Shown: piece after piece, positions 15,679-33,446 of the stretch
Position numbering within the stretch: position 1 is the first letter of the stretch
Layout: each line of letters opens with the position of its first letter
NCBI GenBank assembly: GCA_026026165.1
Contig: JAPEUD010000002.1
Span: 434,001-498,000 of the forward strand
Direction of reading: 5' to 3'
Length of the DNA stretch: 64,000 bases
DNA from: Sarea resinae
Taxonomy: Eukaryota
The notes under the pieces: model-generated
What the model was told of the DNA's origin: nothing
Database searches by the model: none
The model's input: only the letters and a program-made list of their open reading frames with translations
Translations under genes and position numbers: made by a program

Positions 15679-18600
15679 TCAAAACGTGCCCCAAGACGGG
15701 CCGCGGGAGCTTTCTGCTGCAGGCTGATTTCCAGCGTCGAGCTCCATAGGATCGGGATCTAATACTGCAAACCTCGCGACCTTCTTCTTTCCCTTGTCAG
15801 CGGACGATTTGGTCCGTGCGGGTGGCGGAATATAGATGATATTGTCGCTGTCTGATAATGTTCGCTCATCATTATTTGTTTCCATAGGACGACTCTCGGA
15901 GCCCAACGTTTGATCAAAATCCAAAGTCCTCGTCGCCTTCGCCCTCTTCTTCCGAGTTGGTGGACTCTCACCATGAATATCAATAAGGTCGGCATCCGGG
16001 TCGTCAATAAGAGCTCCATTCCTATTCGGTCGACCGAATACCTGCTGCGGCGTATGCAAGCTAGCCATCTGTCTCGGTCCCTCCATATCCTCAGGCGAAA
16101 CAGGCAAGAGCTTTGCGCTCTGGATGATAGAAGTCATCGGCTTGTCGTCCAGCAGACTCTTCTCTGCGTTCTGATGTTCCACCGTTGACATTGCTTTTCG
16201 GCGTTGCAGCATCTTCTCTTCGAGAGTGCCTTTGAGAATCAGCGTTTCAACGTAGACCGGTCGAGCTTGACCGATCCGATGAGCACGTTTAATCGCTTGG
16301 GCTTCGACGTTAGGTTGCCAGATGGCGTTCACAAAGAATACTCTGCTGGCAGACGACATGTTCAAGCCGTGCGATGCTTGATGCACATCCATGAGAAGTA
16401 CACGGAATGTCTCGGTGGTGTTGAAGGTAACCACATACTGGGATCGTCGCTCGCTCTTCAAACTTTTGGCGTAGATTAAATGCTTTATGTGAAGCAGATC
16501 TAGCGCTTGGGCAATGTACCACTAGTCCCTTCAGTCAGCCCTGGAGACTAAGTAGTATTCCATAATCACTTACAGCAACGTTATCGCCTTCGTAAAACAC
16601 GAGAATCTTCTCTTGTTTGTGTAAAGAAAGTATTTTATCGATAAGATAGCTTAATTTGGCCGACGCAGTACCGCAAATTATCGTCTGGCCGACAGGGGAA
16701 TCCGCTGGAATAAGGGCCTCCGGGCCAGGAGGTCGGGAACGCTTCAAAGCAGACTTGAGATTTTGCGATGAGGATAGATCACCGTTGCTTAACCCCTTTC
16801 CGTGAGATGATTCTTGATGTGATTTGATCCCTTCTAGAGTGCCTGTTGACATCTTTCTATGCGTATCCGTTGGCTCTTGGGCCAGACTAGACTTGGGAAC
16901 CCCTTTCATCTTCGTTCCTTTGACAACACGCTCGGTACTGGCCTGATGATTGGCGGCATACATAGCAGACCAACCCTCTTTCGCCAAACCGTCGCTTGGA
17001 TCGGAGGCATAAAGCTGATTATTGACGTAATTTTGTGCTGAGCAGAGTTGCGTCATACCCATCAATAGTGGGTCTGCCATGCCTTTCCCATCAAGGGCCC
17101 ATTCTTGAGCATTCCCACCGGGCCAATGTTGAAGGAATATTCCTAGCTCGTGGAAGCGGCTGAAAGCGTTCCAACCAGATGAATCCAGTACCAAGTCTCC
17201 TACCACAATTATGTCTTCCAACGCTTGTCGGTCGTGCATATCCAACTTAGTTGATTCTTTAGCTAAATAATCTTTGCTAATCTGAAGCGCGGCTTCAACG
17301 TCGTTGCGTGAAAATCCAGTCCAATAGAAGCCACTTTGTCGAAGATTTGCAATGAGTTGATTGAGTGATTTCTTATTCTTGGGATGAAATAGATAATCCT
17401 CATCTCGACGTTCTGACGTGATGGCATTTGAGGTTAGTACCAAAACGAAAAGGTTGATCGAAAGTCTATCGTAGAACGAAGGCTCCAGATGGATCAGCTG
17501 ATTATAGAGCGGTGGGAGTTTCAGATCTGCCTCAACATCCTCAGGACTGTGTCGTATTATCAGACCTTCCAGTGTTCGTTTCAAGCAAGCCGAATACCCT
17601 TTGAAGCCATGGTCTTTCGTGTCGCGGTAAGACTGATACATATACGTGTTCCAGGCCGGCGGTGCACCGTCCCGTCGTGAGCTCACCCAAGGGCTTATCT
17701 TGAAAAAGTCTATGGCGAGACGGCCAAGCTTTTCGACATCGCTGCGCTCCTGACGCCAAGCGTCGCTGTTGTTGCGAAGTTCGAGAGTGGCTTTTCTTCG
17801 CGCCGGACTGAGATTTGTGACTTCATTTGAAGATTGCTCATGGTCAGGCTTGGAATGCTCATTTGCAGCAAGCTCGACTTCGACACCTATTAGACCCTTG
17901 GTGGGCGTTCCGCTGATGATCCATCGAGAATCTGTCTGTAAGTCAGCCGCCACGAGGACAGCGTGCGACTTCGACCCTGAAGATGCAAAATTGTGGCCCT
18001 CGTCAACAATTAACCTCAGCCAATGGAGCTCCTTCAATGGCGAGTTATATACTTCCTCAGGACGGAAACAATCGCAGTCCTTTTCGCGCGTTCCAGGGAT
18101 ATACGGGCAAAAGCACTTCAGTTGTTTCCCAAGCGGCGCACGGCGACCTTTTGCGTCCTCGCCATCCCGTATTTCGCGTTCGAAACGCGTTCTAGAGAAA
18201 AGAACGACGTCGTATTCCGCAAGTTCTTCGGATGGTGGAAGTCCCTTCTTCGGACTGTCCATGACGAGAACTCTCAAGGCGCCATCCTCCGTATGTTTGT
18301 AGATCTCGTTCTTCCACTGCTGAAGCAGATTAGGAGGCACAATGATCAAAGTTGAAGTGCATAAGCGTATCCTACGGCCGTGGGTCGCCACGGTAGCTCG
18401 ACTTTTACGCAAAGTTGCTTGCGGCGGTCGTATCATATAACTACCAACGTTTTTCTTGATCCTCTCGATGCACTGGCTATAATCATCTCCAAAGCTGCTC
18501 AGCCGCTCAAAGTGGGTTTTCCAAGGGACAGAATGCCTTCCGATAGCGGAGGCAGCCATATCTTGCAGAGAGCCCACTCTTTCTCGGACAGGTGTCAGAT

Positions 18601-19755
18601 CTTCGGAGTGTTCAATAGGAATTCGAGGCCAATAGCCCTTGCTTGCTAAGATTGTTGCTAGGCAAATCAGCGTCTTTCTAATAAGAAGTCAGCACATCGA
18701 GGGCATCTAGATTGAAGAGATTGGGTTCATGCCCTAGGCCCATAGTCTCAGCCAGGATCCCCCCACGGACTTCCTCGTACAGCCGCGGCTCCCTCAATAT
18801 ATCACCGGACTGATAGTCGAAGTAATAGACTGACCCATTGGCAGAGATCGTTGGATGAAGCCGAGGGTCTAATTGAAACTTTGGCATCGATTCCTTCTGA
18901 AGCATCAATGCTGCGGAACGGCATTGGTAAGGGTACAGAGACGTTTTGAGCCCATCAATGAATCCATCACCATCTAGCAGATCAGACATCGCAGCTTGTA
19001 CAAACCTGTCATGGACCCAATGAGGATCTGGCTTTGGCGATGGCATGGTATTGTACAAGTAGTAGAGCGAAGATAGAGATTTGTCGTCAGTTTCGTCTAT
19101 TATATGCTTTGGTGCATATGTCTCACTGTATGTCGCTGCCCAGGAGCTTTTGCAAACGTCGACCTCGCATAGTAAAGCCTTCAGGCATCTTCGAAGACTT
19201 CTGTCCGAGCGTTGGAGAATGCCTCGTCCGACATCATCGGGGAGGATCCAGATCCTTACGGTCACGGCCACGTCCGACTGAAAGGCCGATGCTCTCCTGC
19301 AAAATGCACGAATCCAGCCAGCACGGGCTAGCTTCATCACGCTCTGGCGAAGTGTTTCCTGATTATCCAGGACCAAATAGCTCCAATCTGTGACCTCCTT
19401 CCATGATCCCCGGGCGGGAGTATCACCTTGCCAGCGCATTCTCAAGCTGCCAACCGGGATGTAATTTCCAAGATCAAGCAGGCTCCGTTCTCCGTCCAAT
19501 TTGTCTTGATGGGTGGCTCGGCCATGGCAGTTGCAGAGTACTGACGCTTGAGGATCATCATCATCAACTGGCGAGGTGGGGGTCATTGACGTCGCCGGAC
19601 TCGACCGAGAGCAGGCATCTAGTGTTGCCTTTGACAATCAGCAGAGGCAGGTAGAAGGCGCTCTTCACACATACCGGACTGCCCAAATGCGAGACAATCT
19701 CTTCCCGGTCAGACTGCCCTTCCGTAGAGTATTCACCGCTTAAAGAGTCCCCCAT
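15679..19755 (-). CDS. SNF2-family (Rad5/16-like group) helicase/ATPase
   Basis: complement join(19675..19755,18733..19628,16574..18677,15679..16521). Motifs LYPYQ, GGILAETMGLGKT (needs a GC-AG intron), TLIIVPPNLLQQW, WLRLIVDEGH, RWIISGTP, HGLNMSSASRVFFV, EAQAIKRAHRIGQ. The first exon is less certain. Confidence 0.9.
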
Positions 19756-20307
19756 CTCGACGCCCACAAAGAGAGATCTCAAAAGACAGAGGCTCGGATC
19801 TTTCACTTTCAGAATAGAAGGCCGTTCTGCTAGCTACAGATTCCGGTCATGCTGGGTCCGAGATGCTCGTGAAGAAGCGTCGGGTCATGTAAGTAAACGG
19901 CACCGGCTAGTCGTGAGCTGAGGGAAGAACTCCATGCATGGCAATGAGTGATTTAGAGTCTACCCATGACTCTCATTCTCTATTGAAGAACTGACATGAA
20001 TGGGATGATTGTTGGAATCGTTGAAGCAGCAGCGCATTCATGATCATGAAGCTCTACTCGGTCTATTCAGAGACACGGCCAGGCAAGCCAACCTAAGGTG
20101 ACTACCGCAGTGTAGGTGATTGATAGCCCTGAACTATGTTGATTGGCGGGACGCCTTGACCGCCTTTGTCTTCGCTTCAACTGATACCAATACTGCCCGC
20201 CACCATCACCTCCCGTCTCCGACCCTCGTCTTTGGCCTCACCATCCTCAGTGATCGTTGTCAGAGCTTGCGCGTTGAAGCTTGCTGCACTCAGCTATCAC
20301 AGAGACC

Positions 20308-21305
20308 ATGGCTTTTTCGCCTTCTTCAAGAAACCCAATTCCTGCTGAGCCTCAAGATGAGCCTCCTGAGCTCTCAACAGTCATACCGAGACCTCTAGAT
20401 CCGGCTTCATTTCTTTCTATCATGGCGGATATCTTACGGCTGTATCATTGCCCTCAAGCAGCTTGTTCTTCGATATGTCCCTCTGACATGCTGAAGTCCA
20501 GATGAAACGATTGCCCTCTCCTTCCTCTACCTGAACAGATACAAGCGGTTTTACAACGATCCTGACCAGCATGACGTTTTGGATGCCTACGTTTGTCCTT
20601 CTTTACGCTTCGGCGCCCAATGAGTTCCCACTACTGACACGAGCAAGCTGTGAAGACGCTTTCTCTCGCCGCTCTATCTCTGGCCTCGAAAAGTACCGAA
20701 GCACCACGCCGATTACGCGAACTCCTCCTCGCCGCCTGGCGTCTCCTACAATCTTCCAGTCCAAGAACTCAACCGCTGACCTTTCCTTCGGCGCTGTATG
20801 ATTCCTTACGCTCGTCGCTTGTGCAAGCAGAGCTCATCCTGCTGCGAGCCCTCAAGTTCGAACTGCGGATACCTCTTCCGCTGGAGTTTCTTCCGAGGTA
20901 TATGGATCGGACGATTGGCGATGTCAATGCTGGTCGGGGGGACTGGCGAGGCACAGAAGACTACGAGGCCATGGATAAAGAGTCTCGGGAGGAGTATAAG
21001 ATTGTTGATTTGATGAATACCAACATTGGCAACGCTTGCAGGGTTCAGGTCATCGATGCGTAGGTTGTTGGCTTCGCCATCACGTAATATCAGTTCATCT
21101 GACAGGCCGATCCAGGTGCAAAAATTACCAGTTGGCAAACTTCTTTCCGGCTCGAGCTGTGGCAGCAGCTTGTCTTTATAGGGCGCTTCAGGCTCATCGA
21201 TTGATCGGACCCAATAACGTTACGAAATGGCTCGAAGAAGTCACCAGCGGAAGAGTCGACCGGGCTGATTTTGACGACATACTGGCGGAGCTCGCAAATG
21301 TTTGA
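20308..21305 (+). CDS. Cyclin-like protein (transcriptional cyclin K/L/T-like box)
   Basis: join(20308..20441,20497..20590,20656..21059,21116..21305). Cyclin-box signature LAALSLASKSTEAPRRLRELL ... LVQAELILLRALKFELRIPLP; second box FPARAVAAACLY. Confidence 0.75.
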
Positions 21306-22224
21306 GTGAGATGCCATAACGAGATAGTCTCAAGTCCTCCCCATGCTCAAGGTATCTGTCAGTATGAAGGCGATTGCCGCCTGCTCGGGACCCTCCAGGC
21401 GAGCATTGCCGTGACAGCCCAGTGTCGGTCGTCCCTACCGCATTGACGTCGTATGCCTGAACTACCACAGTAGGCTCCATACATATATCGATTTCCAAGT
21501 AGTGAGCCCGAGCATCATTCATTTTGAGATATGCTGAGAGGCCTTGAAGCTATCCTTCAGGGAGACCCCACAGGAACGGTAATCGTTGCTGTTCTGGCAA
21601 TATGACACCACCATACCGTCTGTTGCTGATGGATACCGGACGAACATTGAATGGCGCCTGGAGCGTGATAAAGCCCTGGTGTTTCTGGGGTCCCTCATAC
21701 GCCCGCCGGAGCGTAGCGGTGTCTCCACCAGTCTCTGATAGATGGCTGAGGCGGAGCGTGTACATCGCTCCTGCCATCTACATCATTCCCATCGAAGAGT
21801 GGAATCCAAGACCACCCGGGCAGTGTTGACATGCTTTGTTTTCCTCTGTATGGCTATCATCACAATTGCATATCTGGCCCTCCACATTGATCGAGGGTCC
21901 TTGAAATATGCTCCGCGTCTCTTCACCCCGTGTAAAAGCTGTCTGTCACTTTCTCAACAATACATCAGACGTCGCATCAGAGCTGGCTGTCGTTATCTTC
22001 ACACAACATCAATGACTGGGTCGGAGCTGTTTCTCATTCTCTTCCATTCGGGATCAGACCTGCCTGTCGCTCACTTCATACCTCACCGCCCGTGGTACTA
22101 CCTGTCGCTCACAAGAATCGTCCATCTTTTCATTCGCATCGCGTTATTTCCATTCGGGTCATAGGCTCTTCTGAATCCGCAACCGCTCTTTAGCTAAACC
22201 TCCACACTTTTGAATACGTATAGC

Positions 22225-23298
22225 ATGCCAAATTCCTCTACATCCCAATTGAAGTGGCAACTGACACGTCCAGATTCTTTCTTTTCCTATCAACACACGA
22301 TCATGGTAAATTCCAGAGACAGTTTCAATTGGGAGACTGGTAGCGATGACCTGATCCTCGCAACATGGATTTTGAAAAGGATTCAATTCTACAAAGAATT
22401 GTTGGAACTCCCTCTCCTTAGTCCGGCCCTTAGACTCGTCGTCCTTCAGGCAAGACAGATATTTCAGGAATGCAAGATACCAAAACCACGTCGAATCACC
22501 GAAACCGAGATCAATAGCCTTTTCGCGTTGGATTATCAGGTCACAGAACGCTGGAATGCAATCTACTCGAATCCCTATATTCATCCCGTTGTCTTCATTG
22601 ATGCGGTTGACGCTCTAAGAAGGGTGCTCTCCACCAAGCTAGTGTTTGACTACTACCCAGGGCATCTTCTGGACGGCGATTTTTCATTAGAAGAAGTGCG
22701 ATTATTACAGGTCTTGGTGGGCGTCGCTTCACAGTGGCCTCCAACACAGCCGACGACTAATTGCACGGAAACTGTGCGCCTCGCTCATCTCCTTATTGAT
22801 GAACTACGGATCGATCGGCTCTATTTACAACGAAGACTGGAATGCATGTTGCATCGCTCCTGGGGAGGAAGCGACATACAACGGGCGATTGAGACGAGCT
22901 CTTGGGGGTGGGTGGCTTTGGTACTATACAACGACCGCTTTCTGCTTGATGCCATCATGCCGAGGACAACCGCGTCCGAAGTCGAAATTTGGCGCGGCAT
23001 CATCAGGATGATGATTGATATTAAGGAGTGTTACTTCGTCTACTTTGAAGACGCAGACCACTGGGCCGTTGACCAGACAGCGGCGGAGTCTTCACTTCAA
23101 CAGCGACAATATCGTTATCCGGATGGTTACCTCCGCCCCGCAGAGCTTTCCAGCTCGAGCATCAACGCCAAAATAACCCAACTCACATTACCATGGCCTA
23201 GAGACATACTGGTTGATGATGTTAGACGGGTCAGAACGCAGCTGCGGTCTAGAACTCCTGCACCTTTGCATTATTGCTGTGAGGTACGAAGGGTGTAA
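22225..23298 (+). CDS. Hypothetical protein, no recognisable family (357 aa from first ATG)
   Basis: Single 1.07 kb stop-free frame with globular, L/R/W-rich composition, not overlapping another gene; no motif recognised. Confidence 0.55.
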   Translation: MPNSSTSQLKWQLTRPDSFFSYQHTIMVNSRDSFNWETGSDDLILATWILKRIQFYKELLELPLLSPALRLVVLQARQIFQECKIPKPRRITETEINSLFALDYQVTERWNAIYSNPYIHPVVFIDAVDALRRVLSTKLVFDYYPGHLLDGDFSLEEVRLLQVLVGVASQWPPTQPTTNCTETVRLAHLLIDELRIDRLYLQRRLECMLHRSWGGSDIQRAIETSSWGWVALVLYNDRFLLDAIMPRTTASEVEIWRGIIRMMIDIKECYFVYFEDADHWAVDQTAAESSLQQRQYRYPDGYLRPAELSSSSINAKITQLTLPWPRDILVDDVRRVRTQLRSRTPAPLHYCCEVRRV

Positions 23299-24128
23299 GG
23301 ACCGCCTTTTTGTTTTCTCGGTTTGCAGCAATGTTGGTATGGGGACCTACTGTTGTGCTAGACTACGCGTTTGGGTAGTACTGAGTCAGGCGGCGCTCGG
23401 TCTGAGGTGGAGGGAATCCATCGCTTATGCCTCGTGTCTTCAAAACATAGATTGGATTAGCTTGGATCAAACTAGATTGGTATAGAGAGCATGGGAATAG
23501 CGCAGCCGAATCACAGCCCCAGACTCCGTTTCTGAGGCCTCTTCGGTTTCCTGTTCTTCAAGGACTTGCCTGCTGGTGCAGACTAAGCCGGCATTGGTCC
23601 TACAAATGAGAAATATAATATCTGTAACCCAAAGTTCTCCCTCTTGGCGCTGTGTCTGCAGACTTATGTTATACATAGCATTACTTTGTTGGGTTAAGAG
23701 ATAGAGATATGCACTAGGCGAGCGTTCAGCGTCCTCATCGTCATCGTCCTCATCAGCAGCAGAGACGAAGAAAGAGAAGTAGAATAGAGCAATTCATCAG
23801 GTTGTCTGAGTGAGATCCTTGACTTCAATAGCTTATTAGGAGGTGGGTAGTGTGGGCGAGAGAGAGAAGGTAATGCTTGAAAAAAGTGAATGGATATATG
23901 AGTCTACAGATAATCTGATAGAAAATGTATGAAATAATCGGATAAGACATCAACAAGAGTCAAAGGACGAAAGATGATCTAATCAAACTGATAAAAGTCC
24001 AGGAGAAAAAAACAGGAAAAAGGAAAAAACAATTAAAATGCTTCAAATCCAACAGCAGGGTTTCTCGAATAACGAACAACGTTGAACGAAGAACGGATCT
24101 TGACAACATGGGCCAGGACTGACGAATG

Positions 24129-27100
24129 CTAACCCCCCCTCACCCCGCTTTCCGCAGCCGCCATACCACCACCAGCAACACCACCACCTCGCTCACCAGC
24201 GACCCCGTCGTCCTCTCGACCGCCAAGCCCTCGCACCCACTCGCCGATCTCGAAGCCCAACCTCCTCAGGGTCTTCTCCTCGACGAGCGCAGCGGTGGGC
24301 ATGCCGATGCCAAGGCCCACCCCCGTGCCGGGGCCATCGCCGTCACCACCACTGGCAGGACCGACGACGACGACCCTGACGACGACGGCGGCGGCATCGG
24401 GCCGGACCTCGACGGCGCCGTAGCGCGCGACCTCGTCGGCCGGGGCCTCTTTGACGTACACGGTGATGTCCGGGCCGACGATGCCGCGCCAGAGCGTCGC
24501 CATCCATTGCCAGTGGTCGGCGGCCGAGTAGGCGTCATGGATCGGAAGGGCCAGCGTCGCGGCGTCCGTGGTGGCTAGTATGTAGGTGTTGAGGAGGACG
24601 ATTGGGGTCGGGGTGGGGTGGGGAGCTGGATAGGCGGTGGGTGAAGGGCGATTGGGGGTAGGGGGCTTGCTTGTGGGCTTGGTGGTGGTGGTGGAGGTCG
24701 TTGTCGTCGGTGTTGTGTGGGGAGCGGAGTTGGGGCTTGAGCGGGAAGGTTTTGGGTTCGTTTGCGGTGGCTTTTCGAGCCTCGGCTGGTGCACGACTAT
24801 GGTCTCTGAGGACGGAATGACGGGCGAGGGGCGAGTGCGGTCGCGGTGAACCATTGGCGTGGTACTAGGATTCGTGGTGGCAGCGGCGGTAGTGGCGGTG
24901 TCAGTCGAAATCGACGAGGCAGCGTTTGTGATGAAGTGGACAATTTCACGCGATTTGGCGTGCCATTCGGCCACGAAACGGAGGTATTGCGCGAAGAGCT
25001 CGCCGCCGTTCTTGCCGTCGTCATCGTGTCCGATGGCATTATCAGCGGAAAAGCCGTCGACGACATTCATCGGCTTATCGCTCTTGTTGTTGTCAACTTG
25101 ATCCTTCTTCTCGCTGGCGGTTCCACGCCGCTGCCACTGTCGCTGCTGACGAACGAATGGATTGTGTGGGCCCTGATCCTCAACTCGGACGAGGTGTTCG
25201 TCGCTCTTGCTGAGATATTTCTCTAACCACTTGACGACGGCGTCTCGAAGCACCTCGTCCGGGCCCTCAACGGCGATGACGGCACCACGGATATTGTTGA
25301 AATGACTACTGCTGGGGCTCAAACGATGTGGTCCAGCACTAGCACCAGGGGGCGATGGCGTGGAAGGCAGAAGCCACTGAGAGAGCACTCGCAGTGGCCG
25401 ACTGATGCGGTTGAGGAGCCGGATTTTATTCAGGAAAGGAATATTCCGGACGACGACCTCGACATCGGCGGATCCGTGCTCGATCAGGGTCGAAGAAGTC
25501 GGTGTCTGCAATAGCGCTAATGATGACGGTGGCGGTGGAGGTTGCGGAGGGCCCATGTAAAGCTGCTGGCCGTGTTCTGCGCCATGCCGATGGACCATAT
25601 CTGGGTGCATGAGGGACTCGCGTCTCCGAGGGAAGGTATACGCCGTTGCGGTGGCCGGCGTGTACGGGCCTGGATGCTTATATTTTCGACGTTTGGGGTC
25701 GGGCGAAAGGGGCGTGGGATTGCCATCGTCGCGGAGACGGGTCTGGGGAACGAGGACGCCGGTTAGGCCTCCACTTTTCGGACTGCCCTGTGGCTGTTGC
25801 TGTTGAGGTTGGAACTGCGGACTATACCGCTGCAAATTAAGCCCCAGTGGATAACGCCGCTGCTGGGGCGGTCCGATAATGGGCGTGTTCATTATAAGGG
25901 TCGGCAGATGGCTTATCGTGCTAGTTGGCGCAGAGGATACGGGCTGGGGGTGGAAATTATGCGTGAAGGGTGTCCGAGGCGTGCTTGGAGCTAGAGCTGT
26001 GATGCTGCGGCCGCCACACTTCGCGCACGGCGTTGTCTGCGCTTGGCTGCTACCTGATGAGGTCGGCGAAGAAGCTGAAGGCGGCGAAAGCAACGTGGTA
26101 TTGTTTGCGGTGTTGTTGGAGCTGCCGCTGCGACGAGGTTTGTAGCGGTAGTCGGGATACGATTGTTGATGGCGGACTTTCTCTTCCTATATTGAGATCT
26201 AGATTAGCACCCCTAGTAAAGGACTCGGAGCAAGGCATTGTCCGATATATTTATGCTGAGACAGTGACCATGCTCACCTCTGCCAGATTCTTCCACTGAT
26301 TTTTGATCTCTGGGGGCTCTGCTTGCCAGCGCTGGCCGATCAATTTCGAGATTTCTGGGTTTGAGAGTCCAGGACGATCAGCCACGAACGTGGACTGAAG
26401 ATGCTGACGATAAAGGATGAAGGCTAGAAGGTTAAGAGAAAGATCACCCCGAGGGGATGAGTCAATCAAAGTCAGTCCGAAGAGTTCTCTTTGTCTGTTC
26501 TATTTCATGTCTAGCGTCCTCAATACCGGCCAGCTAAGAAGAGAACAAAGACATTTCGGATGACAGCCAGAAATAACGACTGCCGGTATGAACAAGAGAA
26601 ATGTGTAACATGACCCCTACCCCACACAGCCCTTTCCCCATCCGTACCCTAGTCTGGGCCGGCGCTGTTTGAAAAATGATTGATAAAAGAAGGGAATGAA
26701 AGAAGGGGCGTAGGCATGCTGCAACTTACCATTTCTAGGCCGAGGTATCTTCGGATCCGGTTGGCATAGGCACACTCTTGTGGGAGAGCCGCTCGCTGAT
26801 TGTGCTAAAGGTGCTGGAGATAGCGCTGAGGTGACCAAAGATACAGCTTGAGGATGAGATTCTTGTTGGCGTGGTGGTGATGATTGTGCGGGAGGTGATG
26901 CTGCCGTCCTTGTCACAGAGGGGACCGACGAGTAAGGCGCCATTGAGGACCGCGGAGAAGGTCCAACAGAATCAGAAAATGTGCTCAACGGCACTCTAGG
27001 TCTCTTTGTTGTAGCCTGTGGCTTTGTCCCTTCGAAATTGTCATTTAAAATTTGGATTACTCCCTTCTCCTTTCTAGAGGCCGCTACAGCAGGCGTTTGC

Positions 27101-27237
27101 CGTCGAGCCTCTGTCTCCTCCTGTCGTCTCAAACTCAGCAAGAAATCAGATTGCTCTCTGCTTCGTGAAGAGGCTTCTGTGATATTGGAGATGCCGCCTT
27201 CGAAACCAGAAAAGGTAGACACTCGCGTCGAGGACAT
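24129..27237 (-). CDS. SOX/MATA-type HMG-box transcription factor (Rox1/Rfg1-like box) with a C-terminal alpha/beta domain
   Basis: complement join(26730..27237,26278..26423,24129..26186). HMG box CLCQPDPKIPRPRN|AFILYRQH...NPEISKLIGQRWQ...WKNLAE|EEKVRHQQSYPDYRYKPRR. An in-frame TGA lies five codons upstream of ATG 27237. Confidence 0.9.
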
Positions 27238-28496
27238 GGAGAGATCTATTCAGGAAATTCCTCTTGTTCCAATTGTTTGCGAAGGAATGCTATTGTTGTC
27301 CGCGAAATCGATTGATGCTTTCGTCTGCTTGAGAGATGATCGAGGTCAAGGAAGACGGCCTCCTTTTCAATGAAGGGCGGAAGAAGGAGGCCACTATCGC
27401 CTTCTCTGTTACCGTCAATTCAGATGGGATTGTTAAATCTGGGAGCCGTCCTCTCAAGTTGTTTGCCTCTGTAATCTCTTTTGATGCACGCGCGTCTGCG
27501 TTTGTGTCAAACCCAATTGAAGAGAGATTTCAAATTGAGCGACATTCACGGATGTGTGCAAACGGGGCGAGGCAAAAATCATTCTGAGCGTCGGAGAAGG
27601 CGGGGATAGAGCAGCCACATTTTCTTTGTCTTCTCGTACGCTGCGGGGAGAGACACGCCGCTTCAATTGTTTCTGCCGGATCATTTGTCAGTTGTTTCTT
27701 TGTCTCTTCATCTCAATAGCTCGGGCTCGTTCATCCATTCCGATCGTGGCCGCCTAACATGCAATGAGTACCACTGAGCGATGACATGCATGATCAATAA
27801 TCAAGCCACGGCTCCGATAGCTGAAAAATAAATAAAATTGACGTCCTACGCGTCTAGCACAACAAGGCCTTCTGTTGTGGGAGCTTCCTACCCAGTCGGA
27901 TGGAAAGAGTCTTACTTGACTGTCCTCATCATGTGAAAATATCATGACATCTCGTCTGAATCTCCTCTACTCCATCGCACCCAACCGAGGAGAAGGATAG
28001 CGATGACTGAGACGAAACGAAACCCTTTCCAAAGGGCGAACAAGGAAAGGCATTTGGTCTACTACAATCCAAAGGCTGCAGGAAGGCGTCATGGCGAGGA
28101 CGTAAGGTGACTATCCGAACTTTGGGATCCGCTTGTTTCTTTGTTCTCGGATGTGGCGAATGGCGGGTAGCGGCACAGAAAAGGCCATGCGCAAGGCAAA
28201 CCACAACAAAGGAAACCGAGGGAGAAACGGGAAAGATGGCGCCAGCGAGGACATAGCACACATGTACTTACTCGTGGGGTATCAAATTCATATTCATCTT
28301 TGGATTTTTGTTTCGATGGATTGGATGTGGAAACGGCTTGCTTCACTCGGTGAAATTCGACTTCGCTTGTCGTCAGAAACCGCCCAAATCGAAAGGATCG
28401 TCTTACGAAGATAAACGAAAAATCAAATCATCGGCGTCTTTAAAAGACAAAGTAGACAGTAGACGCCTGGACGCCTGTATATGCAAATGCTAAAGT

Positions 28497-28543
28497 CATG
28501 AACCATAAACCATGAGACATAAACCATGAGCCATGAACCATGA
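28497..28543. repeat. Degenerate 7-mer tandem repeat (CATRARC)n
   Basis: catgaac cataaac catgaga cataaac catgagc catgaac catgaa. Confidence 0.8.
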
Positions 28544-28668
28544 AAGAGCACTAAAGCGGAATTAATGAGAATTTGCGAGTAGAAGGGAAGAAGTCTCCGA
28601 TTAGATTGCGTGATCAGAAGAGAATGTCCTTGAAGCAAGACAATAGTCGCAAGAACAACGAGCGTTCG

Positions 28669-29930
28669 CTACCTTGTAGATTTTTTGTCCGAATGTAGGT
28701 CAAATAGCTTGGAAGCCCCTTTGACAATCTGCTGTGCGAGTAATTTATTGGCCGCTGCGCTCAGATGCATGTCATCCCTAAGGTAATGGCAGGGTTAACA
28801 GACGTCGAACGAAACAAACAAGGCATCACCAACCTGAAGAGATATTTATCGGGCCGCTTGCATTGGATCTGACCGCCCCTGCTCTCGCCTTCTACATGGT
28901 GCTCTTGATCGCCGCCGCCAATGCATGCGACATGCACATCATCCCACATCGGTTTCTTGGTCCCCCAACCATTTATGTCGTGCTGATGTTGGGAGTGCAT
29001 CTGATGCTCCCGAATCTGATCGATCAGCCAACTCTGCGTGTCGAAGATGTATATAGTGCCATTGGCCCATTCTTGAGCTATAGTATCGAGTTGATTATTC
29101 CACTGCACGACAAGATCAACCGCAAGGCGCTGGGAGTCGGCCCTGAGATCTGTACCCCTTGGCGTGGTTCGGGTGCCGTGCCAGCCTGGCAAGAATGTCG
29201 GGTCGATAACATTCGGGATGATCACTTTAAGATGAGTAGGCCACAGGTTCGCCAGCACGTCTAGTTGTCGAGAAAACTCATCCATACTACTTCTGATCGC
29301 AAGGCTGGCAGCACCCTTTGTTCTCCACTCCGAGTAATGCCAGATATCCCATAAACCGAATTGTATGACGAAGACCGTCCCGTTGCGCTCTGCATCCATG
29401 TCGATATCCGCCGGAACCACTCTTCGCTTTTCGAATTCGCTCCACTGCACGATTTGTGCTTTCAAGTCGGCGAGCGGTTCTACGGTGGGAGGGCCGGAAG
29501 GATTCTCCGAATCGTTCAATATCTTGTTGTAGAGAATAGCCCCATTGTATCCGTCTTGCCACGCATAGGGAAAAGAGCGTGCAAAATTATCATGATGGTC
29601 GCATAGAAGCTGAGGATGGCAGGTCAGCGAGTCAATCTTTTCACGAGTACAGATGCAGAGAAGAACACACACCTCGCTGCAAAACAATTCAGTCCAGACC
29701 TGATCCTTAGCGGCATCTCGAGCAGGCATCAAATCTGCAATTGGAGGGTCTATCGGATATTCTCCATTGTCGCTCCATGAGTTGCCAAAGACTACCAGCC
29801 TGGTTGTTGATTGTCCCCATGCTTTCTTTACTCTTTTAGTAACTCGGTTATATGGTAGGATCCAGGACAAGTAAACAGCACTACATATCGCAACCCCCAG
29901 CAGTGCGTAAACTCGAGTGAAGATCCTCAT
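28669..29930 (-). CDS. SGNH/GDSL-type hydrolase with an N-terminal signal anchor
   Basis: complement join(29673..29930,28834..29609,28669..28777). Block I RLVVFGNSWSDNG, DNFA, block III-like QFGLWD, block V YLFRDDMHL. Confidence 0.8.
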
Positions 29931-30933
29931 GCCAGTCAGGCACGGACTCGGTCGCGGGAGCAACAGATGTCTGTTGTCTCGGAGAGCAGCGTCTGATTCC
30001 TGGAGTCGAGAGCTCGAGCGAGCTCGTCTAATTCTTGAATGCGATTCCTTTATCAAAGCTGGTGCATGGATCTGTTTGCAACTGTGACACAAAGAATGCA
30101 ACGACGGACAGTGCGAACAAAGTGGGGCGATTGTTTCCTGGTCAGCACAGCGCTTGTGTTAAAAACAAAGAAGACAGCGTCCGAGCAGCATGCTGAAGAG
30201 AGGCAGATCATGCAACGTCATAAGCATAACGTGATGCGATCAAGGGCGATATTGATGAAGGGCAAGAGAAAGGGTAGAGGAAGAAAAAAGAATGAGGATA
30301 TGGGGAGTGAGTAGTTGACGGTGCACCGCGCAGTGGCAGTGGGTGGACATTAGCGTTGAGATGGGATCTGCATATCTCCAACATCCGATCCGATAGCCGC
30401 ATGCGCGTGGGACAAACGAGCAAGCTAAGAGGGCCGAGGGCGGCGTTGCGTTGCGGGTAGATCAACCTGGTAATTCTCCCGAGCTCGAGCATGCCGAATC
30501 GTTAATCCTGGTAATACGCAAAACACCAAACTAGAACCTGCGGCGCGAGGGATGACGGGAGAGAACACGGTCGGACAGCATACCAAGACGGATTCAAAAA
30601 GCACTCAAGGGACCAAAGGATGAATCACTTGGTCCTATAGGCTACAGCTTTCCCATCGAATTTATTCTCGCATTTGTCATTCATATACCAACAGATTCAG
30701 CTCCGTTCACGATTTGATTCAGTTCACCACCGTGATACCTATGCACCAGAGGAGATTGCTTAATCTACAGAGACAGATGGCATGAAGCATCAACGTGGTT
30801 TAGTAAGGTAGATACTTTGGACGGTTCACCGTCCGAATTGGACAGGCATGATGCTCTTCTTGGCCCTCAGATGCACGCTCTTAAAATGACAAATATACGC
30901 CGAGAACAAACAACATACAGACATGATTCCAAT

Positions 30934-33446
30934 TCATCTCCTCTTTGATGATGCGGCATTAGGTCGTTTAGCCCGAGGCGCTTCATCTTCGCTCTCTTCT
31001 TCATCCATGGAATCGACATCGTCATGATCAACTTCATCTTCCGATATATCATCACCAGTATCCGCATCCGTATCTTCGGCCTCGTCATCTACTAGATCAT
31101 CCTCGCTGTCGCTCTCATCATCGTCAGAATTAGCAGTGACACCGTTGACGGTCATGGGCATGTCATCTCCGTCATCATCGCTCTCGCTGGCCCGACCTTC
31201 CGCAAAGCCAGCTTCTGAACCCGAACCCTCACTTCCTTCATCATCTTGACCCTCGACATAGATGACACCCTCCTCGTCGTCTTTTTCCTCGAGTCTCGCT
31301 GCTCTGCTAGATGCTTGCATTCGCTTCCTCAGTTGCATCTGAGCATCCAGCATATCCAATTTCCCTTTCAGCGAAAGCAAAGGTTGCAAGCCGGTAGACC
31401 GCTCCTTTACCACTCTATTGAGCGAGCCGAGCTTTCGAATGAGATCCGGCTGACTGGCAAGATACCCGCCGTGTGAGACCAAAGTCCACTGAGCCCAGAC
31501 CATGAGAGATGCAGCTCGGCCGGGTCGCTTATGCAGGCGATCGGAGAGCTTTTCTAGTAAGACTCCAGCCAACGAGGAATCTAGACGCTCAATAGTCGAA
31601 CGGATAGTGGCCAGATCCGTTGTATGTAGGCATGTTTCGAGAAGAGCAATGTCGTTTGTTTTCAACGATTGCGTAAGCACTGTGCCGAGAGAGGTGCCAG
31701 AAGGCAATTGCACTGCTCGAGACGCAGTTGATGGGATAGCCGAGCGAGTCTGAGCATAAGGGTCTTCGAATGTCCCTTCCACATCAATGGGTTCGGAGGC
31801 ATTTGCTCTCACCAGATCACCGAATGAAGGCTCTGCGAAATCTTCATCCTTAGACGATAACTGTACATCCTTCATCTCCGCATCCTCGTTCGATCCAGTG
31901 AGCGCATCTTTGGCAGCCTCCTGCGCTTCTTCATCGCCAGAGCTTTCATATTCACTCTCTTCCTCGTCGCTCGAGATTGCGATAATCTCTCTCTCCTGGT
32001 CAGCCATCTCGACATCTCCGGCTCCAATCCCATCAACCACCACCGCGCGAGACTCGTTCACGTTGCTGTTACCCATATCCTTCACACCATTCATGACAGC
32101 GCCAGCTCCAATGCCTGTGCTCTTCCCTCGCACGATCTCTTTGAGACCTTTGAAAACGAGGGCCCCAGTGATATCATCTTGCCATCTTATTCTTTCAAAA
32201 GAAATGTTAACTCCACCATCACTCCATGCCACTATAAGGTCGTTCTTCTGGAACGCGGCGTTTATCACTGGCACCAGAGTAGCTTTGTCGTCGGGCCTGG
32301 TGATCTTTACGGATGCTTCAGACTTTTTCGTCATCTGACGACGCTTGGACTTCATATTTGATGATGATCCTGACGTCCGTAACTCCCGAAAGCTCTGGAA
32401 AGGGTTTGGGAAAATCTCCACCAATCCGTCTCGATTAACAACAGCAAGAGCTTGTCTCTCTTGCCCATCGAGGAGATCGTCCTCTTCCTCTTCATTCCCA
32501 ATGCTGCTTTCAGAATATAGATTCACTGATTGTACCTCACTTTCCGTATTGAGTGACCCTATCAACTTTTGGCCTTCGACGTCAAACAAATTGAGGAATC
32601 GATCAGAGTCAGAAGAGGTCAGAAAAGCGCCAGATATTTTCGATGAAGAAGGGGAAGAAGTAATGATGGCATGTATCGGAGTTGTCGAAGCCTTGAAAGT
32701 AGGCGTAGGTTCACGTCCAATAGTATCCTGGTTAATCACGTAGGCGACGTGAGAAGCACAGATGACCGAAGGTGCTGTGGGGACTGGTCGAGAAAGGGTG
32801 ATTGCAGTATTGGTGCCAATGGTGAGGACTCTATGGCCTGATTAGAGAAAGAAAAAATAAGAGCACACACGAAAACCTACCGGATGGTCGTGCCCTTGCG
32901 AAGGTCCCATTGAGCAAGTTTTCCTTCTCCACCCAAACTCCATCCTTCTGCGGTAGCGGCACGATTCGTAAATTTGAAATCCCTGATACCCTGCGAGTGA
33001 ACACCCTGTAGTTTTCCAACCACCTTTCCTTCGACGGGAGAGAAAAATACTATTTCATTGTTGTTTGTGCCAAAGGCTACAACTATACCGCCAATGGTGG
33101 AACCATCAGCTTCTGAACCGCGCTTCCTCTTTTTTTTTAGGAGCTGATGGTCCCAGTCAGAACCTTTGCCACCATAATAGCCCCAGTCAAGAGAGTTGAT
33201 CGTTGAATTGGGAGCAGATGCATGCTCACACCGCAAACGACCCGTTACGGTGTCATGGATGCGGAGATGCTGTGATTCCAGACCCTGAATGACCGAAGCA
33301 AAGAGCGAAAGCTGATAGATGGATGGAGAGAATGCGGAACGTATAATGGACGATCTGGATGCCGACTGTGCTGCCGCTGCCGTCGCCGGAGCTGCTCCAG
33401 AAGATATGTTGGACGCTACTCCGCCTGAGGTCTTCTTGGTGACCAT
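30934..33446 (-). CDS. utp5: SSU processome t-UTP subunit Utp5 (WDR43-like)
   Basis: complement join(32881..33446,30934..32830). N-terminal WD40 (HLRIHDT...GRL, LAQWDL), Utp12-type domain SLGTVLTQSLKTND...LLSLKGKLDML, acidic tail. Confidence 0.9.

Follow-up and report, generated by a model that had tools for sequence, protein, structure and literature searches.

An HMG-box protein of Sarea resinae with a predicted, apparently non-catalytic thymidylate-kinase-like domain

The DNA analysed here, a stretch of 64,000 nucleotides from Sarea resinae (contig JAPEUD010000002.1, positions 434,001 to 498,000; hereafter, the window), carries a gene whose product joins an HMG box, by way of a long disordered linker, to a C-terminal region of ordered segments. 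A preliminary description, made from the sequence alone, read these segments as a thymidylate kinase (TMPK) or nucleoside monophosphate (NMP) kinase fold that has lost its catalytic motifs, and suggested nucleotide sensing or dimerization as its role. The locus raises the question of whether this region does descend from a thymidylate kinase and, if so, what use a transcription factor may have for a dead enzyme. The answer that we consider probable is that the protein is a MATA/SOX-type HMG-box factor with a catalytically dead thymidylate-kinase descendant, which would be kept as a structural module, most likely one that brings two copies of the factor together.

The gene and its HMG box

The gene lies on the minus strand and has three exons (27237..24132), which encode an HMG-box protein of 903 residues; the product of the spliced exon model is identical to the 903-residue Sarea resinae database protein P0003, and this database gene model is the basis for the splice sites used and for keeping the low-complexity inserts in the protein. 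Exon 1 (26730..27237, minus strand; residues 1-169 and one further base) runs from the ATG at 27237-27235 to a GTAAGT donor at 26729, and encodes a disordered N-terminus, a conserved CxC (26761-26769) and the start of the HMG box. The middle of the box is encoded by exon 2 (26278..26423, minus strand; residues 170-218), which is bounded by an acceptor AG at 26425-26424 and a GTGAGC donor at 26277 and whose open reading frame piece is recognized by the Pfam HMG_box model with an E value of 6.1e-13. Exon 3 (24132..26186, minus strand; residues 219-903) is an open frame of 685 codons, closed by a stop at 24131-24129, and contributes the end of the box, the disordered linker and the thymidylate-kinase-like domain; its GC content is 0.57-0.63, as compared with 0.43-0.52 in the flanks. 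That the inserts within the domain (see below) could be unrecognized introns seems the less likely reading: they keep the reading frame, variable inserts interrupt the relatives at the same three positions, and the protein as annotated contains them. A SNF2-type helicase gene (15.7-19.6 kb) and a Utp12-family gene (30.9-33.4 kb) are found in the neighbourhood, together with unnamed frames at 22.2-23.3 kb and 28.8-30.2 kb; for the neighbouring genes in the window, no connection to the HMG-box/kinase-like gene was seen.

The complete HMG box (26145..26748, minus strand; residues 164-232 of P0003), with two introns inside it, is matched by PF00505 with an E value of 1.3e-20 and 74 bits, against a gathering cut-off of 25.4, over positions 1-69 of the 69 in the profile. 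SRY and SOX9/17 were the best sequence matches of the box in a profile search of the PDB, in which SRY, SOX9, SOX17, SOX11 and SOX2 had E values of 1e-17 to 1e-13, and HMGB1 of about 4e-08 and weaker. By these matches, the box is of the sequence-specific MATA/SOX type and not of the HMGB type. Four conserved cysteines flank it, in a CxC before the box and a CxxC after it (26016..26027, minus strand); of the family proteins that contain the start of the HMG box, 92/92 have the CxC and 90/92 the CxxC.

The same kind of HMG box is found in the Rox1 / Rfg1 / PaHMG8 / FGSG_05151 group and, judging from the type of box and from the names in the sources, the family is probably orthologous to the Rox1/PaHMG8 group. 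Yeast Rox1 is a short protein and is not known to have such a C-terminal domain. PaHMG8 is listed as a Rox1 orthologue with no additional domain recognized, and its deletion leads to female sterility (PMC3730723); in Fusarium, the orthologue is among the targets of MAT, and the phenotype of its deletion is mild (PMC11708053; PMC4559316). In excerpts of these three papers the kinase-like domain is unmentioned for the Rox1/PaHMG8 group and, going by the domain table of one of them (PMC3730723), regulators of this type have so far been treated as featureless beyond the HMG box. They belong to the mating and fruiting-body networks of filamentous ascomycetes. We found no description of an HMG box joined to a dead thymidylate-kinase-like domain in the literature, and the preliminary description knew of none either.

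Layout and predicted fold of the C-terminal domain

The three segments on which the preliminary description was based are present in the minus-strand translation of 24132-26186: RGAVIAVEGPD with the next helix at 25289..25212, PIVLLNTYILATTDA at 24605..24561 and DHWQWMATLWRGIVGPDITVYV at 24518..24453. Low-complexity inserts of 58, 105 and 27 residues do separate the segments, the 105-residue insert is T/P-rich (T 26, P 23, S 14), and the span originally given for the domain (24230-25290) agrees with a core at 25289..24225. Two AlphaFold2 models were used, one of the tail of the window protein (model 1; pLDDT 85-95 in the conserved blocks, 68 overall) and one of the compact homologue P0169 (model 2; pLDDT 89.7, pTM 0.87).

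The core opens with strand 1 (residues 50-55 in P0002; pLDDT 91-95) and the degenerate P-loop RGAVIAVEGPD (25257..25289, minus strand), in which Gly-x-Asp is present and GK[S/T] is absent. In place of the helix-2/NMP-binding region there is insert 1 (25002..25175, minus strand), with 58 residues here and 12 in P0169, which is variable, of low occupancy and low conservation, and mostly modelled with low confidence (pLDDT 45-69). It is followed by a long helix (ELFAQYLRFVAEWHAKSREIVHFITNA; 24921..25001, minus strand; helix 140-173, pLDDT 85-92) with a nearly invariant W-H, and by insert 2 (24606..24920, minus strand), 105 T/P/S-rich residues that are predicted to be disordered (pLDDT 47-62) and have a counterpart of 24 residues in P0169. 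Strand 3, with the degenerate DRY, and helix 4 (24561..24605, minus strand; strand 275-280, helix 284-294) lead to the best-conserved block, composed of the helix DHWQWMATLWRG, GPD and strand 4 (24453..24518, minus strand), with invariant H, W, Q, W, A, W and R. A short helix and a beta-hairpin (24363..24422, minus strand; H331-337, E340-343, E348-354) then replace the LID and the helix 7/8 region, and beyond the 27 residues of insert 3 (24282-24362, minus strand) the core ends in a C-terminal helix (EEKTLRRLGFEIGEWVRGL; 24225..24281, minus strand; helix 385-402, pLDDT 88-95), with conserved R, R, F, E, E and R, the nearly invariant R246, R247, F250, E251, E254 and R257 of P0169. The folded unit probably also takes in a two-helix extension upstream of the kinase-like core (ADVEVVVRNIPFLNKIRLLNRISRPL; 25469..25392, minus strand), which is conserved in the family consensus; its equivalent in P0169 (residues 14-37) is modelled as two helices with pLDDT 97-98, and the extension falls outside the ranges aligned to thymidylate kinases and has a pLDDT of about 40 in the window's own model.

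Thymidylate kinases came top in four fold searches, made with two aligners and both models, in agreement with the TMPK/NMP-kinase fold that had been proposed, together with this check, in advance. Among 48,161 PDB representative chains searched with VIA-align, ranks 1-7 were thymidylate kinases with either model, at Z 12.6-9.3 for model 1 (148-163 residues aligned, rmsd 3.3-4.5) and Z 14.0-10.5 for model 2 (7fgq over 158/190 residues at rmsd 2.7); deoxynucleoside kinases followed as the second family, at Z 9.0 and 8.6, respectively. Foldseek against the PDB gave thymidylate kinases as 44/45 of the matches listed for model 1 (E 0.05-1.1) and as 43/44 of those listed for model 2, with eight model 2 matches at E<=1e-3 and human TMPK as the best (1.7e-4). 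In the predicted models, the domain has the three-layer alpha/beta fold of thymidylate kinases, with a five-stranded parallel sheet and their order of helices. The likeness to thymidylate kinase (PF02223; Tmk / Cdc8 / DTYMK) extends over nearly the whole chain, and the differences include the three disordered inserts, the two-helix extension in front and the fusion to an HMG box. The kinase motifs also occur in the order claimed for them, that is, Gly-x-Asp at strand 1, the aromatic residue at strand 3 and the helix-GPD-strand 4 block. Language-model features, used as a lead only, had their nearest named clusters all in PF02223 (0.89-0.90).

Sequence methods are blind to this link. Pfam gave no match on the window tail at E<=1, PF02223 was found in 0/49 family members at E<=10, and in those 49 members and seven full-length relatives Pfam returned only HMG families and scattered chance matches. 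A PDB profile search with alignment A1 returned HMG boxes only, among the best 60 of 65 matches; with alignment A2, made without the HMG box, it returned two matches, both to designed proteins, and no kinase. When E. coli Tmk was used as the target, alone or as a 20-sequence alignment, hhalign paired 21 columns at probabilities of 2.6% and 1.8%, which is not significant; the sole stretch paired was the helix-GPD-strand 4 block, with Tmk residues 119-142, its homologous place. The 120 homologues of E. coli Tmk that were listed are all enterobacterial, and because they are 82-99% identical they do not make a deep kinase profile for hhalign. The domain is below the detection limit of Pfam and of profile searches, and descent from a thymidylate kinase therefore rests on the predicted structure and on short motifs.

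Conservation of the family and loss of catalytic elements

The family has 606 representatives (50%-identity clusters) at E<=1e-3, 473 of which are at E<=1e-30; the inspected listing, also for an intact P-loop, ends before the 133 representatives at E 1e-30 to 1e-3. All named matches are from Pezizomycotina. The three segments are the best-conserved blocks of the 606-representative family and are not due to chance. Invariant in 120 sequences are R48, D299, Y301, H306, W307, Q308, W309, A311, W314 and R315 (P0002 numbering).

In thymidylate kinases the P-loop has the motif GX4GK[S/T], and an Asp in the loop is described as unique to these enzymes among NMP kinases (PMC3169407). The claimed loss of GK[S/T] holds throughout the sequences inspected, G.{0,1}K[ST] being found in the 12 residues after strand 1 in 0/238 of them; the position of the P-loop Asp in the same 238 sequences is D in 159, N in 33 and E in 19. 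The DR of DRY is likewise lost: in the family alignment D occurs in 0/105 and R in 14/105 sequences, the D column is P in 71/105, and the window reads N-T-Y. The aromatic residue of the motif is kept in 105/105 (F 55, Y 49, W 1). If the strands are taken as equivalent, the stretch from strand 4 to the strand after it measures ten mostly acidic residues in P0169 and about 42 residues in E. coli Tmk, where it contains the LID residues K148 to R158 (PMC3169407). The Lys-Ser/Thr of Walker A, the Asp-Arg of DRY and the LID are absent family-wide. From these losses we infer that the domain has given up both ATP binding and phosphate transfer; the missing motifs predict that dTMP kinase activity is absent and, with the LID and the helix-2 region gone as well, canonical nucleotide binding looks unlikely. 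If the models are right, a transcription factor appears to have taken over an ancient enzyme of nucleotide metabolism for a non-enzymatic use.

Possible roles of the domain

In the explanation that we favour, the domain would have been retained as a structural module after the loss of ATP binding and phosphate transfer, two copies of the factor would pair through the ancestral dimer surface of the kinase, formed by the long W-H helix and the DHWQWMATLWRG helix, and the HMG boxes, tethered by long disordered linkers, would engage DNA as a pair. A comparable accessory module is the dimerization domain of group E SOX proteins, through which an HMG-box factor binds DNA in dimeric form, as is proposed for the kinase-like domain; the SOX module differs in being a short helical segment adjoining the HMG box, in having no enzyme ancestry and in occurring in animals. 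Dimers in one common arrangement are typical of thymidylate kinases (PMC3169407), and the same helices are in the predicted two-fold interface of the domain.

Complex prediction with two copies of P0169 residues 12-262, run without an alignment, gave a median of 0.34 as compared with 0.00 for the best of three controls, with one of the three runs at 0.01, and the pass may be a memory of solved structures because thymidylate-kinase dimers have already been solved. The mark used was reached by 21/30 proteins solved as one-chain pairs and by 0/23 solved as single chains; for eukaryotes, it was reached by 17/29 pairs but by 1/7 of those without an older solved relative, and by 0/30 single chains. 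The runs had a contact agreement of at least 77% and a partner pLDDT of at least 64, and the predicted interface includes P0169 residues 103-116, in the long W-H helix that makes up one half of it, and W185, T188, M189, R191 and G192. Conservation at the 15 interface residues does not exceed that of the remaining structured positions (mean entropy 1.68 vs 1.83; permutation p = 0.31). The prediction lends weak in-silico support to a role of the domain in dimerization. The cluster of invariant residues, polar and aromatic ones (D-x-Y, D-H-W-Q-W, W-R), exceeds what a simple dimer surface needs, so that a site for a partner or a ligand in the remnant pocket is possible.

The partner could be another protein. 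The guanylate-kinase-like domains of MAGUKs and of calcium-channel beta subunits have an NMP kinase fold, have lost catalysis and serve as binding modules, an event of the same kind as that proposed here, with the differences that they are of guanylate kinase origin, belong to animal scaffold proteins and bind peptides in the old GMP site. A MAGUK-like docking module, with a co-repressor or, by way of the ancestral dimer surface, a genuine thymidylate kinase as possible partners, strikes us as unlikely but plausible: the predicted self-interface, being the ancestral kinase dimer surface, could equally accept a kinase paralogue, charged residues are conserved on the C-terminal helix and on the DHWQW helix, and the beta-subunit domains are among the weaker structural neighbours (Z 6.7-7.1). 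Few NMP kinase folds are known to have been recycled as non-catalytic modules, and the domain of the HMG-box protein would supply an example derived from thymidylate kinase.

The conserved cluster also bears on whether the remnant nucleoside-monophosphate pocket still takes up a small molecule, be it a thymidine nucleotide or some other, and so gates the factor. In P0169, D175, Y177, H182, W183, W190 and D197 are invariant and W114, H115 and D165 nearly so; the best-conserved residues are polar and aromatic ones for which a dimer surface alone would have no need, and the kinase-specific Asp of the P-loop is mostly kept. Transcription regulators fused to P-loop kinases do exist. NadR, a bacterial regulator with helix-turn-helix, adenylyltransferase and ribosylnicotinamide kinase domains, also combines DNA binding with a P-loop kinase fold and is among the structural neighbours of the domain (Z 8.1-8.4); it differs in being bacterial, in the kinase family and the DNA-binding domain, and in that its kinase domain is active and binds its ligand. 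However, the domain lacks the Lys-Ser/Thr of Walker A, the Arg of DRY and the LID, and where the kinases have helix 2, between strand 2 and the long helix, there is a variable insert with a length of 12 to 58 residues; the canonical phosphate contacts are therefore largely gone, and we regard a ligand sensor as doubtful. A more specific proposal, that the dead kinase domain reads the thymidine-nucleotide state of the cell, either via the remnant pocket or by pairing with a genuine thymidylate kinase, we consider improbable; if true, sexual development in filamentous ascomycetes would have a regulator that is coupled directly to the supply of DNA precursors.

Convergence, or a generic alpha/beta sandwich of the P-loop NTPase type that does not descend specifically from a thymidylate kinase, would fit the failure of sequence methods to find a link and the many P-loop kinases at Z 6-9. 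Against it, thymidylate kinases occupy ranks 1-7 in both VIA-align searches with nearly the whole kinase chain covered, and three kinase motifs, including the kinase-specific Asp, occur in the same order; the gap to the next family is 1.9 Z units with model 2 (10.5 at rank 7 vs 8.6) and only 0.3 with model 1 (9.3 vs 9.0). We judge this explanation very unlikely. That the domain is still an enzyme, with a non-canonical active site to which the invariant Asp, His and Arg residues might point, is scarcely credible, given that every sequence examined lacks the three catalytic elements of the fold.

For the Rox1/PaHMG8-type regulators, a second functional handle would be provided by this conserved folded domain, which has some 220 residues in its core, recurs in hundreds of sequence clusters and probably derives from an enzyme of nucleotide metabolism. 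Dimerization, partner docking and nucleotide sensing become hypotheses for which a construct to purify and the residues to mutate are defined, and the domain is absent from Pfam and could therefore be registered there as a new family.

The gene, its neighbourhood and its family

Read directly from the DNA, the thymidylate-kinase-like domain lies within the last exon of a three-exon gene on the minus strand. Exon 1 (27237..26730, 508 bases) runs up to a donor site, GTAAGT, at 26729; exon 2 (26423..26278, 146 bases) has an AG at 26425-26424 before it and a GTGAGC donor at 26277 after it; and exon 3 (26186..24132, 2055 bases) is preceded by an AG at 26188-26187. Together these exons make 903 codons, and the spliced product is identical to a 903-residue database protein, 'MAG: hypothetical protein M1819_002189 [Sarea resinae]', from a species that its taxonomy record places in the Sareomycetes, Pezizomycotina. 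The G+C content is 0.57-0.63 in exon 3 versus 0.43-0.52 in the flanks. The HMG box occupies residues 164-232 (PF00505, E 1.3e-20), and the solved proteins nearest to it by sequence, in a profile search of PDB sequences, are SRY and SOX proteins; the 685 residues encoded by exon 3 gave no Pfam match at E≤1.

Two cysteine motifs accompany the box on the minus strand: a CxC (26761-26769), at most 14 residues before the box in all 92 family proteins that hold the box start, and a CxxC (26016-26027), about 90-96 residues past the box start in 90 of the 92. These four conserved cysteines could form a putative zinc site clamping both ends of the box. The linker between the box and the kinase-like domain (roughly 25480-26140, minus strand) is long and mostly disordered, and the family consensus shows two short conserved stretches in it, S-P-x-P-D-x-K-R-R-R, likely a nuclear localisation signal, and D-x-S-L-R-L-P-P-L-Q-T. 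The neighbours examined (15679-33452) comprise a SNF2-type helicase gene (15679-19637, minus; SNF2-rel_dom E 4.9e-22, Helicase_C E 1.6e-07), a pair of long open frames lacking a Pfam match (22198-23298, plus, and 28761-30158, minus) and a Utp12-family gene (30934-33452, minus; E 2.7e-25); no mating-type locus genes were seen among them.

The three segments on which the preliminary description had rested its assignment were all found, in the order claimed, at 25289..25212, 24605..24561 and 24518..24453, and the ordered segments are indeed separated by low-complexity inserts, which are 58, 105 and 27 residues long; the longest contains 26 T, 23 P and 14 S. With residues 240-660 of the exon-3 translation as query, 124 homologues were found at E≤1e-3, and a profile search across 1.84 billion representative cluster sequences gave 606 proteins at E≤1e-3 (473 at E≤1e-30); with so many relatives, the segments are not a chance likeness. 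The best 120 of the 124 homologues, taken from the top of the ranking, were aligned: the quoted segments are conserved, fully occupied blocks, and the inserts are variable and poorly occupied. Among the columns without any variation are the R of R-G-A-V-I-A, the D-x-Y preceding the third segment and, within the latter, H, W, Q, W, A, W and R.

Named matches include, by taxonomy records, Sareomycetes, Candelariomycetes and Geoglossomycetes; others, judging by genus, we take to be Lecanoromycetes, Leotiomycetes, Eurotiomycetes, Dothideomycetes and Sordariomycetes. None of the named matches among the best 120 of the 124 homologues falls outside the Pezizomycotina, and the module, which has no Pfam family, is kept across leotiomyceta classes of that group. 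The HMG box is present in 71 of the 120 aligned sequences; the remaining 49 begin downstream of it and are mostly short gene calls on small contigs, one being a fragment of the window's own protein. No DNA-binding domain other than the HMG box was seen among the family proteins examined. The Didymella exigua homologue (1043 aa) has a GDSL-lipase match at residues 45-360 ahead of its HMG box (514-582), probably two genes merged by the gene model. The homologue from Chlorociboria aeruginascens, whose only Pfam match is the HMG box, is named 'Nucleoside-triphosphate phosphatase' in its source; because of this name, an automatic pipeline may have sensed an NTPase likeness.

Predicted fold and probable kinship with thymidylate kinase

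The relationship to thymidylate kinase is invisible to sequence methods. PF02223, the thymidylate kinase family, had no match in 49 family members with the threshold relaxed to E≤10, and profile searches of PDB sequences with family alignments found no kinases. Aligned by hhalign with E. coli Tmk (NC_000913), the family alignment matched at one place only, over 21 columns and with 2.6% probability; against an alignment of 20 enterobacterial relatives (82-99% identical to Tmk among the matches listed) the probability was 1.8%. This match, not significant at 1.8-2.6%, falls where the third motif had been placed, pairing W-M-A-T-L-W-R-G-I-V-G-P-D-I-T-V-Y-V with the Tmk stretch 119-142, whose last residues are P-D-L-T-L-Y-L. 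A protein-language-model look-up gave PF02223 as the nearest named clusters (0.89-0.90), a lead only by the tool's calibration.

Structure was predicted with AlphaFold2 for the window's last 433 residues, using the 120-sequence alignment (model 1; mean pLDDT 68, with 85-95 in the conserved blocks and 37-62 in the inserts), and for P0169, a naturally compact family member of 269 residues from the cluster-representative search, as first row of a 105-sequence alignment (model 2; mean pLDDT 89.7, pTM 0.87). The two models agree in the succession of elements: a strand, a helix, a second strand and a long helix, then a third strand, two helices and a fourth strand, and finally a short helix, a hairpin and a C-terminal helix. 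A segment ahead of this core (25469..25392, minus strand; P0169 residues 14-37; consensus S-V-E-A-M-V-M-x-I-P-x-x-N-K-I-K-V-L-x-K-I-S-P-P-L) is of low confidence in model 1 and forms two helices at pLDDT 97-98 in model 2, so that it would belong to the folded unit; thymidylate kinases lack an equivalent.

Each model was compared by VIA-align, with no prefilter, with 48,161 PDB representatives. For model 1, thymidylate kinases filled ranks 1-7 (Z 12.6-9.3, with 13-18% identity and an rmsd of 3.3-4.5 Å over 148-163 aligned residues), followed by deoxynucleoside kinases (Z 9.0 and 8.7); for model 2, ranks 1-7 were again all thymidylate kinases (Z 14.0-10.5; next family 8.6), the top match being that of Brugia malayi (7fgq; 158 of 190 residues, 2.7 Å). 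The alignments cover the kinase chain almost entirely. In the full PDB, Foldseek found nothing at E≤1e-3 for model 1, with its long disordered loops, yet 44 of the 45 rows listed for it (E 0.05-1.1) are thymidylate kinases; model 2 gave eight matches at E≤1e-3, the best to human thymidylate kinase (2xx3, 1.7e-4), with thymidylate kinases in 43 of the 44 rows listed. The predicted structures, with thymidylate kinases at the top of both searches, thus support the fold that had been claimed. Descent from thymidylate kinase, which finds no support in sequence statistics, is likely on these models.

Loss of the catalytic motifs

The P-loop motif of thymidylate kinases is described as GX4GKS/T, its Asp as unique to them among NMP kinases, and the basic LID residues of E. 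coli Tmk as running from K148 to R158 (PMC3169407). We counted the P-loop in 251 family proteins, among them three entries for the window's own protein or its parts; 238 matched the strand-1 pattern and the other 13 were left out. A G followed, after zero or one residue, by K and S/T occurs in none of the 238 within the 12 residues following strand 1, bearing out the proposed loss; at the position of the Asp, 159 sequences have D, 33 have N and 19 have E. The DR of DRY is likewise largely lost: in the 105-sequence alignment the Asp column is never Asp (Pro in 71), Arg persists at its position in 14 sequences, and the aromatic column holds F in 55, Y in 49 and W in one; the window's counterpart is N-T-Y. 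In the LID region model 2 has 10 residues, of acidic consensus, from strand 4 to the next strand, whereas about 42 separate P-D-L-T-L-Y-L-D-V from I-H-T-I-D-A in E. coli Tmk, if the strands are equivalent as they appear to be. Where kinases have helix 2, after strand 2 and ahead of the long helix, the family has instead a variable insert (12 residues in P0169, 58 in the window). With the P-loop GK[S/T], an intact DRY, the LID and helix 2 all missing, the domain as modelled retains no complete element for ATP binding or phosphate transfer in any sequence examined, and is a predicted pseudoenzyme. On the predicted structures there is good support for both the fold and the disappearance of the catalytic motifs. 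The fusion of an HMG-box factor to an apparently dead thymidylate-kinase-like domain, as first described, is confirmed as an observation and supported as an interpretation: a pseudo-NMP-kinase module, likely from thymidylate kinase, on a transcription factor.

Known systems and possible role

NMP-kinase folds have been recycled as non-catalytic binding modules in the guanylate-kinase-like domains of MAGUK proteins, which are the nearest known kind; among regulators, the bacterial NadR, with a DNA-binding domain joined to a P-loop kinase fold, offers a comparison. No description of an HMG box joined to a thymidylate-kinase-like domain was found in full-text searches of openly readable papers. 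By HMG-box type the protein groups with Rox1, Rfg1 and PaHMG8, presumably as an orthologue. PaHMG8 (Pa_6_4110; NCU03481 in Neurospora) appears as a Rox1 orthologue, with no additional domain where it is listed, and its deletion causes female sterility (PMC3730723). The Fusarium graminearum orthologue, FGSG_05151, is described as a MAT locus target with a mild or absent deletion phenotype (PMC4559316, PMC11708053).

Thymidylate kinases are described as typically dimers of one shared arrangement (PMC3169407), the monomer-monomer interface of the human enzyme being helix 3 (PMC8679000). When two copies of P0169 residues 12-262 were modelled as a complex, the median score was 0.34 (runs 0.01, 0.36 and 0.34; best of three controls 0.00), with at least 77% contact agreement between runs and partner pLDDT of at least 64. 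The mark for this score was attained by 21 of 30 solved one-chain pairs and 0 of 23 solved single chains and, in eukaryotes, by 17 of 29 pairs and 0 of 30 single chains (one of seven pairs lacking an older solved relative); since kinase dimers are already solved, the score may mirror likeness only. The domain would dimerise through a kinase-type interface formed by the long W-H helix (P0169 residues 103-116) and the D-H-W-Q-W-M-A-T-L-W-R-G helix (F174, W185, T188, M189, R191 and G192). Taken together, the 15 residues of the interface show no extra conservation relative to other structured positions (entropy 1.68 vs 1.83, p = 0.31); seven are conserved at 88-100% and the others are variable. 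Dimerisation may be the likeliest single role, at a chance we put only slightly above even because the score may reflect likeness and the interface set is not extra conserved. Invariant polar or aromatic residues (D175, Y177, H182, W183, W190 and D197) lie outside the predicted interface, as does the also conserved last helix, R-R-x-x-F-E; the conserved polar and aromatic residues suggest a further putative binding site, which could accommodate a protein partner or a ligand.
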